A stretch of DNA of 64,000 nucleotides, taken from positions 58,520 to 122,519 of the forward strand of contig JANQMA010000011.1 in NCBI GenBank assembly GCA_028280285.1, written 5' to 3'. Position numbers and translations under genes: made by a program. Origin of the DNA: Candidatus Omnitrophota bacterium. GTDB taxonomy: Bacteria > Omnitrophota > Gorgyraeia > Zapsychrales > Zapsychraceae. Shown here piece after piece: positions 38,592 through 59,653 of the stretch (positions are counted from its first letter, which is position 1; each line of letters begins with the position of its first letter). The notes under the pieces were generated by a model. It was not told the DNA's origin. It saw only the letters and a list, made by a program, of their open reading frames with translations, and searched no databases.

Positions 38592-39644
38592 CTATCTGCA
38601 GCTTTCATATATTTGCTGACAAGTGTCTTTTAAGCTATATTTTTGCTGCCAGGCAGAATAGTCTCGCTCAAAAGCTTTAAGACTGCTGATATACCAGATA
38701 TGATCGCCGCTGCGGTTTTGATCAGAAACACTATAATTCATTTTCTTTCCGGATATTTCTTCACACAGACTGATCGCCTCGAGGACCGAACAACTATTGT
38801 CCCGGCCGCCGCCCATATTATAAACAGCTGACGATTTAGGACTTTGCACATAGTGATAAAAGGCATTGACCATATCATAACTATGAATATTATCGCGCAC
38901 CTGCTTACCCTTATAGCCGAAAATGGTGTACTCTTTCCCCGTGATGCAGCATTTCATTAAATAGGAAAGAAACCCGTGCAACTGCGCACCGCTATGATTA
39001 GGCCCGGTCAAACATCCTCCACGGAAACACACGGTATTCATATCAAAATACCGTCCGTACTCCTGCACAAGCACATCAGCCGCCACTTTAGAAGCCCCAA
39101 ACAGAGAATGCTTACTCTGGTCAATACTCATCGTCTCATCAATCCCGTCCCAAAAGGCATGGTCTTGTTCAATTTCCCAACGCGTATCTGTTTCAATCAA
39201 AGGCAAACTGTTCGGCAAATCTCCGTAGACTTTATTAGTGCTGGTAAATATAAAGGCCGCTTTGGGGCAATGCAAACGCGTTAATTCCAACAGATTAAGC
39301 GTGCCGTTGGCATTAATTTCAAAATCAACAAATGGCTCCCGCGCCGCCCAGTCATGCGATGGCTGCGCTGCGGTATGGATAATAACCGAAATATCGGCTC
39401 CATACTCCTTAAAAATATTTTCTAAATCAGCATGATTACGGATATCAACCGGTTTATGTGTGTAGGCGGGAATTTCTTCCTGCAGAATTTTGAGGTTCCA
39501 GGCCGTTGACCCCTCTTCTCCGAAAAAATATTGGCGCATGTCATTGTCAATCCCGACAATGTTAAAGCCTTTATCGGCAAAAAAACGGACGGATTCTGAA
39601 CCAATCAAGCCCGCCGAACCTGTAATGAGAGCAATGTTATTCAT
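38592..39644 (-). CDS. CDP-paratose 2-epimerase (Tyv)-like NAD-dependent epimerase
   Basis: 350 aa. [28 protein letters not shown] and GKQVRDNIH motifs align with the Tyv/RfbE family. Confidence 0.7.
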
Positions 39645-39650
39645 AAAATT

Positions 39651-39697
39651 AGTTGCTGGTTGCTCGTTGCTAGCAACAAGCGACTAGCAACTGTTTG
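39651..39697. repeat. Intergenic palindromic repeat family R2 (GTTGCTAGCAAC core), copy 1
   Basis: agttgctggttgctcgttgctagcaacaagcgactagcaactgtttg, starting ~6 nt from the start codon of 38592..39644. Second copy at ~54292-54357. Confidence 0.6.
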
Positions 39698-39820
39698 AAT
39701 AATTATTAAGCCACCAAGATTATACATCAATCCTCACAGATTGAAATATGAATTCTTTGATTTAATTGTGGGCAAATCGCCAAATATTCCTATAATAGAC
39801 TATGAAAGTTGGGAAAAATC

Positions 39821-40690
39821 ATGGGCAACATACGCGATATATTCAAAACTAAGGACAAAACCTTTTCTATCGAACTGTTTCCGCCCAAGACGGAAAAAGG
39901 CTACAGCAATTTGATGGGAACCATCGCCAAAATGGCTGCCCTTAAGCCGGACTTTATTTCATGCACCTATGGCGCCGGTGGCAGCAGCCGCGGCAAAACA
40001 CTTGATATTGTTGAACATATTGAAAAAGAGCACAATATAGCCGCCATGCATCATTTGACGTGCGTTATGCACAGCAAAGATGAAATGGAATCTATACTTT
40101 CTGATATTAAATCCCGTGGTGTTGACAATATATTGGCCCTGCGCGGAGATCCTCCGCAGGATAATCCTGATTGGATGCCGGGAGAAAATAACTTTAAGTA
40201 TAGCTCCGAATTAATCGCATTTATCCGGGAAAAATTCGGTGATGATTTTACGATCGGTGTGGCAGGCTTTCCGGAAGGCCATATTCTTTGCCCGGACCTT
40301 AATCAGGATGCTCAATATTTAAAAGGAAAAGTCCAAAGCGGCGCTGATTTTGTAATCACTCAGCTCTTTTTTGATAACCGTGATTACTTTGAGTATATGG
40401 GAAGGCTTAAAAATATTGATGTGACTGTACGCATTATTCCGGGCATTTTGCCGATAACGGATTATCAGGCCTTGCTCCGGTTCACAAAACTGTGTGGCGC
40501 AAGTGTACCAGATAAAGTGCATAAAATCTTTGAGCCTATTCAAGACGATAAAGAAGCAACACTTAAAGCCGGCATCGCATTCTGTATCGAGCAATGCGAG
40601 CGGCTGCTTGCCGCAGGCGCCCCGGGCATCCACTTCTACGCGCTTAACAAAATCCATCCGGTCGATGAAATATTATCAGCGATTTGTTAA
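39821..40690 (+). CDS. metF: 5,10-methylenetetrahydrofolate reductase
   Basis: MetF signature region SIELFPPKT...ISCTYGAGGSSR and ~290 aa length. ATG at 39821 is preferred over TTG at 39809. TATAAT at ~39791. Confidence 0.85.
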   Translation: MGNIRDIFKTKDKTFSIELFPPKTEKGYSNLMGTIAKMAALKPDFISCTYGAGGSSRGKTLDIVEHIEKEHNIAAMHHLTCVMHSKDEMESILSDIKSRGVDNILALRGDPPQDNPDWMPGENNFKYSSELIAFIREKFGDDFTIGVAGFPEGHILCPDLNQDAQYLKGKVQSGADFVITQLFFDNRDYFEYMGRLKNIDVTVRIIPGILPITDYQALLRFTKLCGASVPDKVHKIFEPIQDDKEATLKAGIAFCIEQCERLLAAGAPGIHFYALNKIHPVDEILSAIC

Positions 40691-40743
40691 ATTAAGGGGA
40701 CACAATACTTAATTCAATAATTAAGTATTGTGTCCCCTTAATT
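40690..40743. repeat. Intergenic hairpin repeat family R1 (perfect 25-bp stem aattaaggggacacaatacttaatt), copy 1
   Basis: Left arm ~40690-40714, 4-nt loop, right arm ~40719-40743, immediately after the metF stop. Identical arms at ~55705-55767. Confidence 0.6.
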
Positions 40744-40756
40744 TTAACCGCTACCT

Positions 40757-40794
40757 GCACCGGGTGCGGGCGCACCCGGTGCGCGGAGAGGTTT
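40757..40794 (+). terminator. GC-rich hairpin + T-run (intrinsic terminator between convergent metF and 40794..42083)
   Basis: gcaccgggtgc-gggc-gcacccggtgc (11-bp stem) followed by gcggagaggtttta. Confidence 0.5.
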
Positions 40795-42083
40795 TATTCC
40801 CAAGAAAATCCGATACCATGAATTTCAATGTCTGCTGTACCTGGTGCCGTAACTTTATAAACCAGATCATTAGTACTTGTAGAGGTTAAAGAAACATCTG
40901 CCTCAATAATACGGATGTTCCCCTGATACTCACCAACATCTGTTATTGTGCTGGCTGCATCAAATGTGCCTGTACTACCATTACGTGCCACCGAAACGGT
41001 AAGATCGTTTGTTAAATCATCACCGACAGCTAACAGCATAACTTTCGCACTTGTCGGGGTTGACTCAGCCTCAAACGTCTCAGATACTAATGTAAATGTT
41101 TGCCCTGACTGCGAAGCTAAATAGGATGATGTTTTCTCAGGAGCTTGTGCTGGTGCTGTTGGCACTGTGAATGATGGTGGTGTCGTTGTATCCGGTATAA
41201 TCCCGAATACATTCGGACTACTTACACGAAATTCATCAATATTGCCTTTCATATAAACAGTATCAACAATTTGACCAATAAAAATCGGTGAATCCTCAAC
41301 AAGTGTTGTGGTTACGGTGCTTGATACATGAGCCTTCTGACTCCCATCAAGATAAATACCAAACTCGGTACCTTCTTTAATAAATGCCACATGATACCAG
41401 TCATCATCTTCAATACTATTACCATTGGCATAACCAGTGTTAAGATTGATAATATTTGAACCATCCTTTAGAAAAAATTGTAACATTGATCCCTGCACAG
41501 GATCATAACTCGCCATGTAATATCTAATCAGATTATTAGATGGGGCCCAACCAGAAAAAAAGTACTGATTATCATACTGACCATCTAACTTAACCCAAAA
41601 ATCAATCGATAATGAGGATGTTGTACTGCTAAATGATAAAAAATCTTTTTCATCATTCAAAATAGCTGCATGATCACCGGATCCATCAACATATAAAGAC
41701 GCACCCCCAAAATAACCTTCCGATGTATCAATTGTTGCATCATATTTAAGCTCAATAATCTGACAATTTTGAGAAACATCAGATGTTAAATCACTTGTAT
41801 ATCCAGGCAAAGACTTTGATTCATCAAAATGAACAAGTGCTATAATATCGTCGTTATCATCTGATATAAAATCTACATAACTAGTATTGCTGTAATTAAT
41901 TCCACATTTATCAACAAACGCATCTATAAACCCATCTTGCATTTTACTTACTGATCTATTACTATTCTCAAGTATACGGTACCCGTTAAGAAACTCATTA
42001 ATAGACATTTCCGTTGCTTGCGCCTGCAAGGCACAAAACATTACACCAAAAAACATCAAACAGAAAATAATTCGTTTTTTCAT
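40794..42083 (-). CDS. Secreted LamG/concanavalin-A-like lectin domain protein
   Basis: 429 aa. Signal peptide MKKRIIFCLMFFGVMFCALQAQA. Central region matches the Laminin_G_3-type pattern (SIDFWVKLDG...YHVAFIKEGTEFGIYLDG). Confidence 0.5.
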   Translation of the reverse strand: MKKRIIFCLMFFGVMFCALQAQATEMSINEFLNGYRILENSNRSVSKMQDGFIDAFVDKCGINYSNTSYVDFISDDNDDIIALVHFDESKSLPGYTSDLTSDVSQNCQIIELKYDATIDTSEGYFGGASLYVDGSGDHAAILNDEKDFLSFSSTTSSLSIDFWVKLDGQYDNQYFFSGWAPSNNLIRYYMASYDPVQGSMLQFFLKDGSNIINLNTGYANGNSIEDDDWYHVAFIKEGTEFGIYLDGSQKAHVSSTVTTTLVEDSPIFIGQIVDTVYMKGNIDEFRVSSPNVFGIIPDTTTPPSFTVPTAPAQAPEKTSSYLASQSGQTFTLVSETFEAESTPTSAKVMLLAVGDDLTNDLTVSVARNGSTGTFDAASTITDVGEYQGNIRIIEADVSLTSTSTNDLVYKVTAPGTADIEIHGIGFSWE

Positions 42084-42291: not shown

Positions 42292-42365
42292 AGACCCAAG
42301 ACACCGGACACATGACACAGGGTAAAACTTGTGTCTTGTGTCATGTGACTTGTGTCCTATTTCAA
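42292..42365 (-). terminator. Imperfect hairpin + U-run downstream of yceI-like gene (minus strand)
   Basis: gacacatgacacag / ctgtgtcatgtgac-type inverted repeats at ~42300-42358, followed on the minus strand by a U8 run (plus-strand A-run ~42285-42292). Confidence 0.45.
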
Positions 42366-47312: not shown

Positions 47313-47338
47313 ATCTTGCTCCAAAATAATTTAAAAAT

Positions 47339-47411
47339 CGTACTTCGTACTTAGAACTTCGTACCTCGTGGATTACGATGTACTAAGTACGATGTGCGAA
47401 GTACGACTGTA
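47339..47411. repeat. Palindromic repeat family R3 (GTACTTAG / CTAAGTAC modules), copy 1
   Basis: cgtacttcgtacttagaacttcgtacc ... gatgtactaagtacgatgtgcgaagtacg, imperfect inverted repeats. Related copy at ~59582-59655. Confidence 0.5.
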
Positions 47412-47465
47412 TTAATTTAATTATATAATACTCACTTTTCGACCTATGACAAATGATATTTAATA

Positions 47466-47531
47466 AATTGGTGACAGGCACTTATTTTCAAAAAACAAAT
47501 TGGTGATGAAAATAAGTGCCTGTCACCAATT
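47466..47531 (+). promoter_or_regulatory. Perfect 23-bp inverted repeat (20-nt spacer) in the 5' leader of the ZIP transporter gene
   Basis: aattggtgacaggcacttatttt ... aaaataagtgcctgtcaccaatt, followed by tttta ~20 nt before the ATG at 47553. A TATAAT sits ~40 nt upstream of it at ~47424. Confidence 0.5.
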
Positions 47532-47552
47532 TTATGTTATGATGATTGCATT

Positions 47553-53373: not shown

Positions 53374-53503
53374 CAGAATACCAGCACATCAGAAAGAGAA
53401 TTCAGAGTGTCAGATTATCAGAAAAAGATTTCTGCCTTCAGAGATCAGATTTTATCTGAATTCCTTAATCTGCGTTCTCTTTCTGATAATCTGATATTCT
53501 GGA
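53374..53503. promoter_or_regulatory. Highly structured non-coding region with nested inverted repeats upstream of the response-regulator/mlaEFD operon
   Basis: 14-bp perfect IR cagattatcagaaa / tttctgataatctg (~53411-53424 and ~53480-53493), plus gaattcaga / tctgaattc and cagaataccag / ctgatattctgg. Confidence 0.4.
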
Positions 53504-53511
53504 CTCTGTAT

Positions 53512-55273: not shown

Positions 55274-55696
55274 TTACTCTTCATCTGTATGCAAACCAAT
55301 ATGCAATACTTCCCCCGTCTTGCCATCAATTTCAATGGCTATCGGAATAACAGGATACACCCCGGCAAAATACGTGTTTTCCCGGTCCTTAAAAAGCACA
55401 ACCCATTTGTCTTGCACATCGAATTGGAAGTTATCGCTCGGCGGACCTTCCAGATAAACCGGGCCTGTGGCCGTGTCCCAGATATATTGATGTTCAACTT
55501 TGATCGGTTTAAAACTATAAACGCGATCGCCTAACCCTCTATTTAAAATTTCTTTGTGCGCGATGAGAATCACTTCATTACGGTCAATGCCGTCGGTTAA
55601 ATCGACATATTTATACGCCTGATGAATATCTTGATAGCTGATCCTGTTCGCGCAGCCAGTGGTAAAAATTAATAATAAAAAAATGAAATATTTCAT
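55274..55696 (-). CDS. Putative lipoprotein
   Basis: 140 aa. MKYFIFLLLIFTTGCANR, a lipobox-like Cys after the signal sequence. Confidence 0.4.
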   Translation of the reverse strand: MKYFIFLLLIFTTGCANRISYQDIHQAYKYVDLTDGIDRNEVILIAHKEILNRGLGDRVYSFKPIKVEHQYIWDTATGPVYLEGPPSDNFQFDVQDKWVVLFKDRENTYFAGVYPVIPIAIEIDGKTGEVLHIGLHTDEE

Positions 55697-55704
55697 ATTG
55701 TTTT

Positions 55705-55767
55705 AATTAAGGGGACACAATACTTAATTATTAGTCTGATCGAATTAAGTATTGTGTCCCCTTAATT
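55705..55767. repeat. Intergenic hairpin repeat family R1, copy 2 (25-bp stem, 13-nt loop)
   Basis: aattaaggggacacaatacttaatt - attagtctgatcg - aattaagtattgtgtccccttaatt. Overlaps the stop codon of 55762..56532; ~9 nt from the start of 55274..55696. Confidence 0.6.
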
Positions 55768-56532
55768 CCTCAGTCGCTGTTGTTCATGAAGCGCACGCCT
55801 GCGCATTTCCTGTTCGTATTGATTCTTTAAGATCTGCTGCTGCTTATAATAATCTTGTTGTATTTGCCGGTACTGCCTTTCGACTTGTTGAACCTGCTCT
55901 ATCCTTTCTCTCTGTATAGCCTGCATGCGCTGAGCCATGGCCTGCTGAATGGCTTCCTGATAGTAGCGCTGCATCATTTGCTGCATATATATATGCTGTG
56001 CCTGTATCGCAGCCAGCTGCGCCTGCTGCTGGGCGACCGCCATGACAATAATCTTGCGGTTTTGAACCATCGCCTCTTTAACCCCGAGCTTGATCACCTC
56101 TTGATAAACATACTCATCGCGCAAAGGATCAAGGATGCCGTTAATCACATTCCGGATTTGATTTTGCATCTGTTGCGGCGAGGCCCCTTTATCACGCAAT
56201 TCACGAAACTTATCGACGGCGTCCTTATACGCATCCTGAGGAAATGACTTAAGCGCTTCTTGCTTAAATACCTGCATGGCAATCATCTGAACAGCATTAT
56301 AGGTAATCTGCGGAAACACATTAATGTTTTGCGACTTCATAAAATCGGTGACAATTTTCCCTGTCTTTTCAATAATCGTAGCAATCACCATTTGTTCAAT
56401 AAGCTTCTGCGCTTGGCTGTCAACCTTTTGCTGCGTATACCGTGTATTCCCACTGGCATAAATGCCTTCATTGGCAGACGCCGGCGCGGATAAAAACACA
56501 CTTACAAACAATAACAGTATTATCCGTTTCAA
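55762..56532 (-). CDS. Secreted Gln/Arg-rich coiled-coil protein
   Basis: Signal peptide MKRIILLLFVSVFLSAPASA. C-terminal ~90 aa is low-complexity Q/R/E-rich (QQQAQLAAIQAQHIYMQQMMQRYYQEAIQQAMAQRMQ...). Confidence 0.45.
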   Translation of the reverse strand: MKRIILLLFVSVFLSAPASANEGIYASGNTRYTQQKVDSQAQKLIEQMVIATIIEKTGKIVTDFMKSQNINVFPQITYNAVQMIAMQVFKQEALKSFPQDAYKDAVDKFRELRDKGASPQQMQNQIRNVINGILDPLRDEYVYQEVIKLGVKEAMVQNRKIIVMAVAQQQAQLAAIQAQHIYMQQMMQRYYQEAIQQAMAQRMQAIQRERIEQVQQVERQYRQIQQDYYKQQQILKNQYEQEMRRRALHEQQRLRN

Positions 56533-59581: not shown

Positions 59582-59653
59582 TACTTGGTACTTAGGACAT
59601 TGGACTTAGGACTTGGGAAGCCTAGGTCCTAAGTACTAAGTCCCAAGTACTAT

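Follow-up and report, generated by a model that had tools for sequence, protein, structure and literature searches.

Two perfect hairpins in an Omnitrophota-like genome are probably gene-less repeat dimers of a TIRtron

How do two identical, perfectly self-complementary hairpins come to lie at unrelated intergenic sites of one bacterial genome, and what are they? The question arises in a 64-kb stretch of Candidatus Omnitrophota DNA (64,000 nucleotides of contig JANQMA010000011.1, hereafter the window), which carries two copies of a hairpin that we call R1. The original prediction, made from the letters alone, described R1 as a dispersed, possibly mobile element resembling repetitive extragenic palindromic (REP) sequences or miniature inverted-repeat transposable elements (MITEs). 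This description is borne out and can be sharpened: the arm is the terminal inverted repeat (TIR) of a Y1 transposase of the TIRYT, or REP-associated tyrosine transposase (RAYT), type, and copy 2 is absent from three syntenic sites. We conclude that the R1 hairpins are probably non-autonomous TIR dimers of a TIRtron, which a TIRYT encoded elsewhere or formerly present would have spread. The two copies are as follows.

40689..40744, no strand: R1 copy 1, head-to-head TIR dimer; arms 40690-40714 and 40719-40743, loop 40715-18 (CAAT)
55705..55767, no strand: R1 copy 2, head-to-head TIR dimer and 63-nt insertion; arms 55705-55729 and 55743-55767, loop 55730-55742

Coordinates and shuffles both uphold the claim of perfect hairpins with identical 25-nt arms and loops of 4 and 13 nt. 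The 25-mer AATTAAGGGGACACAATACTTAATT lies on the + strand at 40690-40714 and 55705-55729 and its exact reverse complement at 40719-40743 and 55743-55767, which makes four matches in the window against 0.00 expected from 100 dinucleotide-preserving shuffles. An independent repeat finder returned both copies as inverted repeats that are 100% complementary, with spacers of 4 and 13 nt, and the palindrome of copy 1 runs one base further on each side (26 nt per arm, 40689-40744). The loops are unrelated (CAAT in copy 1, the 13-nt ATTAGTCTGATCG in copy 2). Folded as single-stranded DNA, copy 1 reaches -26.9 kcal/mol (z = -12.8) and copy 2 -24.3 kcal/mol (z = -10.4), with 7 GC pairs out of 25 in the stems (arm, 28% GC). 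Each arm is also a small palindrome in itself, made of GAATTAAG, an 11-nt loop GGGACACAATA containing GGGACAC, and CTTAATTC; single arms fold on themselves into a 7-9-bp stem (-2.3 to -5.4 kcal/mol, z of about -5 to -7). The arm TAAGGGGACACAATACTTAATT contains GGGGACAC, which matches the GGGGWSAS motif of TIRtron TIRs. Two inverted units and a spacer that form one hairpin, as in REP and REPIN sequences, are present in R1; the GT[AG]G tetranucleotide of canonical REPs and REPINs is missing, as neither GTAG nor GTGG occurs on either strand of the arm. A scan of the whole window at Rfam gathering thresholds matched no family.

The arm is not confined to the window. The original prediction had allowed for a repeat that exists in these two copies only and is lacking in relatives, as coincidence or local duplication would produce; we found the arm in at least 111 stretches from about 60 other genomes. 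The search covered GTDB, one genome per species, with the inner 20-mer TAAGGGGACACAATACTTAA as query, and the exact matches come from more than 12 phyla, all of those listed being metagenome-assembled genomes (MAGs). The matches listed include Alpha-, Gamma- and Delta-proteobacteria, Omnitrophota, Elusimicrobia, WOR-3, Planctomycetota, Nitrospirae, Aminicenantes, Hydrogenedentes, SAR324, Clostridia, Flavobacteriaceae, Thermoleophilia and Abditibacterium, and many of these assemblies give several contigs with the 20-mer. Because the GC content of the matching loci spans 33-72% (the arm has 28%), the hosts are genuinely different genomes and not one mis-binned organism. A 22-nt core is identical in bacteria of more than 12 phyla among the matches listed, although selection on the exact 20-mer inflates its apparent conservation. 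Together with the shuffles, these stretches rule out chance or local duplication as the origin of R1. An adapter or assembly artefact, considered as all matches are MAGs, is ruled out by the unique gene contexts, by the conserved gene that the arms bracket (below) and by two independent assemblies: the same strain is found in Logan assemblies of SRR20820735 (loci L112 and L117), and the repeat is present in both.

We counted arms in 766 kb of fetched DNA from the 111 loci, allowing up to 4 mismatches. The 226 arms comprise 76 head-to-head dimers and 78 unpaired arms; dimer loops measure 1-142 nt, with a mode of 6 and a broad group at 30-40. Dimers are dispersed without a gene between their arms. 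The extended arm consensus is G-A-A-T-TAAGGGGACACAATACTTAATT-C, and the outer 'AAT/ATT' differs between genomes as part of the palindrome. None of the viral contigs searched carries the 20-mer, and the plasmid records hold only relatives of the transposase at no more than 45% identity (in 23 of 72,556); phages or plasmids as the vehicle of cross-phylum spread are not upheld by these searches. A literature search for the arm sequence found no paper. Two genomes among the matches deserve a separate remark. A MAG labelled 'Bordetella parapertussis' (CAMDCO01; L002, L020, L053, L072, L081, L086, L106 and L107) contains numerous copies of the TIR as well as a TIRYT gene; since the source was an environmental sample, the species label looks doubtful. 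In the WOR-3 MAG JAUWNN01, one and the same stretch of 60 nt or more (ttctggccctcatcaccatcgaattctcggataaggcgcaagacggcctaccgctgacc) comes after a single arm at five sites or more, which makes a longer composite repeat with one TIR in it:

JAUWNN01 composite-repeat sites: L010 at 5311 and 6472; L090 at 7288; L018 at 1112; L082 at 5887

What identifies the arm as a TIR is the gene that it brackets. In about ten loci (including L033, L035, L038, L062, L063, L089, L105 and L106) arms flank an open reading frame (ORF) of 216-224 amino acids, and the repeat is in this way associated with a TIRYT gene. L033 has the order hairpin, gene, hairpin; so does L038 (hairpin 649-724, gene 765-1415, hairpin 1422-1497). 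The bracketed protein begins MARLARVVxPGxPHHxxQRGNRRQ and finishes KPGPKPK. It scores 54 bits against the Pfam family Y1_Tnp (PF01797; cut-off 23, E 1.7e-14), which is the only Pfam match at E <= 0.01 (no Bac_DnaA_C, HTH_23 or HTH_28), 64.5 bits against the NCBIfam equivalog for REP-associated tyrosine transposase (NF047646), under the cut-off of 80, and 21 bits against the IS200 model (cut-off 55). An alignment of these proteins shows the conserved motifs NHVH, LWQGRF, RYVELNP and WSS, with N59-H-V-H62, W99-Q100, Y119-V-E-L-N-P124 and S139-S140 invariant or conserved; the tyrosine motif is Y...NP, unlike the Y...Q of the IS200 type. The key motifs of TnpA-Y1 subclass 2.1 are the HuH motif NHVH, W[EQ], Y[IV]ELNP and SS in the tail (Quentin 2018, Table 1, PMC6006769), and this subclass has been equated with the TIRYT proteins of Di Nocera 2013 and corresponds to RAYT group 1 of Bertels (Quentin 2018, PMC6006769). 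By its motifs, the bracketed enzyme therefore fits subclass 2.1, or RAYT group 1, or TIRYT.

Structure prediction agrees with this placement. The AlphaFold (AF2) model of an Omnitrophota member of the family (P0125) has a pLDDT of 90.7 and a helical C-terminal region at residues 140-201. Its top Foldseek match is 4ER8, E. coli TnpA-REP bound to a REP hairpin (E 2.4e-8, TMt 0.74), and the IS608, ISDra2 and IS200 transposases rank lower; the predicted fold is thus closest to that of E. coli TnpA-REP. The family comprises at least 6,943 clusters at 90% identity, named just 'transposase' or 'hypothetical'. The TIRYTs that are bracketed by an identical 22-mer share 48-81% identity with one another and cluster according to the class of the host (69-74% among three alphaproteobacterial proteins, 81% between two deltaproteobacterial ones, about 50-59% for all other pairs).

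The 111 loci were chosen by the repeat. For a less repeat-biased sample, we fetched 80 metagenome loci by similarity to TIRYT protein alone, and most of them are flanked by inverted copies of the family consensus g.aatT.cGGgGACAc.ataCttaatt. The left TIR commonly lies about 36 nt before the ATG and the right TIR mostly within about 50 nt of the stop, often within 20. Anchored TIRs were obtained on both sides in 26 loci. Within a locus, the left and right TIRs match at 23.7 of 32 positions, compared with 16.9 +/- 0.45 for TIRs of different loci; each gene is thus accompanied by its own allele within a graded family. The arm in the window is very close to the family consensus, and its exact 19-nt core occurs in 3 of the 80 protein-selected loci.

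A second perfect hairpin in the window, with 26-bp arms (AAATTGGTGACAGGCACTTATTTTCA) and a 16-nt loop, lies at 47465-47532. Its loop holds a truncated copy of the arm, AAATTGGTGA, and the arm carries GGTGACAG, the 'GGTGAC' variant common in TIRYT TIRs; the best matches of the arm are the TIRs that flank the TIRYT gene of L187 (score 13-14, shuffled maximum 11). We take the hairpin to be a probable dimer of another TIR allele or family within this genome.

The site of copy 2 records an insertion into an operon junction, between two genes of the - strand.

55762..56532, - strand: 256-aa ORF, function not assigned; TAA at 55762-55764, the final AAT-TAA (last codon and stop) being part of the copy 2 arm
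55274..55696, - strand: 140-aa lipoprotein-like ORF with the N-terminus MKYFIFLLLIFTTGC; ATG at 55696, 9 nt after copy 2

Synteny holds in three orthologous loci (L118, L119/L120 and L121), which all have a 227-aa gene, a gene of about 255 aa, a lipoprotein gene of about 140 aa and an ABC ATPase gene in this order; the identity of their ~255-aa products to the protein of the window is 63%, 59% and 56%. The junction between the ~255-aa and lipoprotein genes measures 2-3 nt in all three, versus 65 nt in the window, 63 of them the hairpin, and a search for GGGGACAC throughout the three loci found no occurrence. Copy 2 is therefore demonstrably an insertion relative to its syntenic relatives, as judged by sequence comparison. 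It also confirms the predicted context, over the stop codon of 55762-56532, and donates that stop: the window ORF ends ..LRN* with AAT-TAA taken from the arm, and the orthologs end ..LRR*. Across 183 arms from the 111 loci and the window, the outer TAA terminates a reading frame that is open for 100 codons or more in 24 cases (copy 2 of the window among them), compared with 10-12 in the other two frames. In-silico removal of exactly 63 nt yields an ORF ending ..LRKTI*, whose TGA overlaps the downstream ATG (an ATGA stop/start overlap); this reconstruction of the ancestral junction is suggestive only, because the orthologs have a 2-3-nt spacer instead. The loop of copy 2 could also have been host DNA trapped between two independently inserted single TIRs; this is ruled out by the orthologs, whose junction is just 2-3 nt long and holds nothing loop-like. 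Neither copy has an unambiguous direct repeat that would mark a target-site duplication (flanks ..TTGTT/TAACC.. and ..GTTTT/CCTCA..), which is what an HUH/Y1 mechanism would give, by analogy with known enzymes.

Copy 1 lies, as predicted, after the metF stop between convergent genes.

39809..40690, + strand: metF (MTHFR), Pfam E 6e-97; TAA stop at 40688-40690 abuts and overlaps the outer end of copy 1
40746..40793, no strand: separate GC-rich hairpin GCACCGGGTGCG..CGCACCCGGTGC, from the repeat finder and folds, between copy 1 and the gene at 40794-42083
40794-42083, - strand: convergent gene for a 429-aa Laminin_G_3 protein, facing copy 1

The true start of metF is probably a few codons downstream of 39809 (the database protein, P0001, has 289 aa). 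The nearest named homologues of metF are from Omnitrophica (65-73% identity), and the window is Omnitrophota-like, with about 41% GC. Orthologs of metF (79%, 77% and 73% identity) have the stop codon at the same position and no such hairpin after it. The hairpin at 40746-40793 is probably a native bidirectional terminator outside the R1 repeat family.

These observations can be joined in one model. Each R1 hairpin would consist of two inverted copies of the ~25-28-nt TIR of a TIRtron, a Y1/HUH tyrosine-transposase gene (TIRYT) bracketed by such repeats, with a short unrelated spacer between them. By analogy with TnpA-REP, IS608 and ISDra2, a TIRYT located elsewhere in the genome or formerly present would recognise the small stem-loop of the arm on single-stranded DNA, cleave via its tyrosine and rejoin single strands, probably at the replication fork; rejoining without target-site duplication would spread the dimers into intergenic DNA. 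The biochemistry of IS608, ISDra2 and E. coli TnpA-REP (PDB 4ER8) is the source of this analogy. Effects on neighbouring genes would be by-products, namely an RNA hairpin of high stability at the 3' end of the metF and 256-aa-protein mRNAs, a wider gap before the lipoprotein gene and the loss of tight coupling to it.

Several points weigh against this model. Neither a motif scan nor tblastn found a TIRYT gene in the 64-kb window, and about 10 kb of extra flank (Logan contigs) holds no TIRYT and no further R1 copies, which leaves two copies in 64 kb plus about 10 kb of this genome; because of this we regard the hairpins of the window as orphan head-to-head TIR dimers, and the mobilising enzyme in the window's own genome is a postulate. 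We know of no TIRYT that has been tested biochemically. At copy 2, the orthologs are only 56-63% identical to the window, and because of this the ancestral junction, the boundary of the element and any 2-4-nt duplication within AATT/TTAA cannot be fixed. At copy 1, the comparison is weaker because the gene downstream of metF differs in the ortholog loci. Finally, the copies of one genome have intact arms but mostly unrelated loops, which simple copy-and-paste of whole dimers does not predict.

Loop length is nevertheless characteristic of each genome: 6 nt in JACZUY, 10-12 in CBFCWR, 31-32 in CAWELC, 38 in L033 and 32 in L038.

Loci for loop lengths: JACZUY, L006, L009, L016, L049, L097 and L103; CBFCWR, L014, L023, L043 and L050; CAWELC, L029, L062 and L067

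In addition, a truncated copy of the outer arm end (flank plus TAAGGGGACA..) stands just outside the full arm in 17.8% of arms, compared with 3.2% of control windows. Such copies (flank plus TAAGGGGA.. or ..GGGGACAC) can be stacked outside the arm and are often mirrored on both sides of the hairpin.

Truncated-copy examples: L032 3230-3330; L023 400-520; L074 3020-3150; L069; L099; L035; L095

These 'stutters', which end around GGGGACA(C), may mark the site at which the enzyme cleaves or joins, and they may be nested footprints or products of hairpin-templated repair.

Three other accounts of R1 were weighed. The original prediction held that the element probably acts as a terminator or mRNA stabiliser, and a hairpin selected by the host as an intrinsic terminator or a 3' mRNA-stabilising stem-loop, with mobility secondary or absent, would suit the position of both copies at gene 3' ends and the high stability of their RNA stems; E. 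coli REPs are known to affect 3' untranslated regions, and a loosely defined terminator pattern fits copy 1 on the metF (+) strand. That match, however, arises because the element's own TTAATTTT end supplies the T-run, and copy 1 adjoins the separate GC-rich hairpin at 40746-40793. On the transcribed (-) strand, copy 2 lacks a T-run or U-tract; it is located within an operon, with 9 nt to the next start codon (2-3 nt between the genes in the relatives), and termination there would be polar and harmful. A terminator needs a stem and a U-tract, not a 22-nt sequence that is identical across genomes of 33-72% GC, and the hairpin is absent from orthologous sites. The terminator claim is thus not borne out, and we consider regulation by a host-selected hairpin improbable as an account of R1; a stabilising effect of the 3' hairpin on mRNA is possible as a side effect. 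A classical MITE, that is, an internally deleted insertion sequence whose TIRs are acted on by a DDE transposase with target-site duplication, would likewise have perfect 25-nt TIRs, short non-coding content and intergenic locations, and a duplication of TA or TTAA might be concealed in the palindromic AATT/TTAA ends. Yet the only gene found between these TIRs, in the ten or so repeat-selected loci as in most of the 80 protein-selected ones, encodes a Y1/HUH transposase, neither copy has an unambiguous direct repeat, and the outer 'AAT/ATT' varies with the palindrome to which it belongs. We give this origin hardly any credence.

The remaining account shares the enzyme with our model and differs in what maintains the repeats: a domesticated TIR-TIRYT system in which each TIR is kept for a role in the host, for example as a site of TIRYT binding or processing in single-stranded DNA metabolism or chromosome organisation. 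The copies in the window would then be working sites and not selfish relics. It draws on the 22-nt core, which does not differ between more than 12 phyla or over a GC range of 33-72% while the TIRYTs, sorted by host class, fall to 48-59% identity, on loops that are randomised yet genome-specific in length, and on the outcome of the viral and plasmid searches (no viral copies found, only distant relatives on plasmids); RAYTs have also been argued to behave like housekeeping genes (Bertels 2017, PMC5581495). The same survey describes RAYT group 1 as one of the two most insertion-sequence-like groups, with about 12 occurrences of flanking 16-mers per replicon (Bertels 2017, PMC5581495). Against domestication, selection on the exact 20-mer inflates the conservation, the exact core being present in just 3 of the 80 protein-selected loci, and the insertion of copy 2 damages an operon junction and looks selfish. 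We regard domestication as improbable. Because the TIRYTs are diverged and grouped by host, with no viral copy and only distant plasmid relatives, the data favour a long-standing, strongly constrained presence over recent transfer, with the caveat of the 20-mer selection. That this reflects an ancient, vertically inherited TIRYT-TIR partnership with a host-level role, kept by purifying selection on each copy or by active homogenisation, is a speculative proposal that we put forward tentatively; if true, the partnership would be comparable to or deeper than the REPIN-RAYT association.

The preferred reading, of R1 as TIRtron TIR dimers, places these hairpins in a known but little-studied kind of small mobile DNA, that of RAYT group 1, here in an Omnitrophota-like host; the proof from the empty sites and the cross-phylum identity of the core add modest novelty. 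No RAYT-like group is larger or more widespread than RAYT group 1 (subclass 2.1), whose substrate and function are, to our knowledge, not known. It now has a defined self-complementary DNA partner with a family-wide consensus, a clean insertion documented by empty sites and a candidate cleavage position after GGGGACA, and together these make the biochemistry of TIRYTs directly testable with short oligonucleotides. As REP-type repeats are as a rule lineage-specific, it is unusual for a 22-nt non-coding sequence to be the same in different phyla. For annotation, hairpins of the R1 type can create stop codons and split tightly coupled genes.

Other long intergenic palindromes in the window, all imperfect (47338-47406, 59588-59650, 39638-39705, 42300-42356 and 53374-53507), are made of short degenerate motifs such as TCGTACTTCGTACTTAGAACTTCGTA and GTACTTAGGACATTGGACTTAGGAC and are unrelated to R1 in sequence. 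Short-read contigs of the same strain end within 47338-47406 (L112 stops at 47405 and L117 starts near 47377).

Among known systems, the IS200/IS605 family (IS608, ISDra2) resembles the one described here in that an HUH/Y1 transposase acts on single-stranded DNA hairpins and leaves no target-site duplication. Its ends, however, are dissimilar subterminal hairpins, whereas those of R1 are inverted repeats, and its TnpA has about 150 aa and the Y...Q motif; the score of TIRYT against the IS200 model is low. The REPIN/REP-RAYT systems of Pseudomonas and E. coli (Bertels & Rainey 2011; Nunvar 2010; Ton-Hoang 2012; Messing 2012) share with R1 two inverted palindromic units that form one long hairpin, and a non-autonomous, intergenic repeat that also flanks a single Y1 transposase gene. 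R1 differs in having no GT[AG]G at the foot of the hairpin and a weak, AT-rich stem within the unit; its core is common to many phyla, whereas REP sequences are lineage-specific, and the enzyme, unlike an E. coli-type RayT, stays below the NCBIfam equivalog cut-off. Canonical REPs and REPINs reach tens to hundreds of copies per genome; the 64 kb plus about 10 kb covered here have two of R1.

The likeness to subclass 2.1, or RAYT group 1, extends to NHVH, WQ, Y[IV]ELNP, a tail with SS and a wide, patchy distribution, although the proteins here have 216-224 aa and the median of the subclass is 238 aa. The HTH-like C-terminal domain of that subclass (Bac_DnaA_C, HTH_23 or HTH_28) gave no Pfam match at E <= 0.01 here. 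Subclass 2.1 genes were reported to have no REP-like sequences nearby (Quentin 2018, PMC6006769); unlike in that survey, the flanking repeat here is clear, self-complementary and dispersed. In the literature that we searched, the term TIRYT appears only in Di Nocera 2013 (PMC3733652) and Quentin 2018 (PMC6006769), and the searchable text of the TIRtron papers, figures excluded, does not mention an identical 22-nt allele shared across phyla. TIRtrons were described as TIRYT genes flanked by long TIRs that share GGGGWSAS, with further TIRs dispersed singly, as dimers or in groups (Di Nocera 2013, BMC Genomics 14:522; PMC3733652). Inverted repeats around a TIRYT gene were found here in other genomes and in most of the 80 protein-selected loci; the 64 kb plus about 10 kb of the window's own genome gave no TIRYT gene. 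Like those TIRtrons, the system has a RAYT-like Y1 gene between inverted TIRs, dispersed single TIRs and dimers, and TIRs of which some are self-complementary; unlike them, it is met here not in isolate genomes such as those of Stenotrophomonas and Koribacter but in an Omnitrophota-like MAG, as orphan dimers only.

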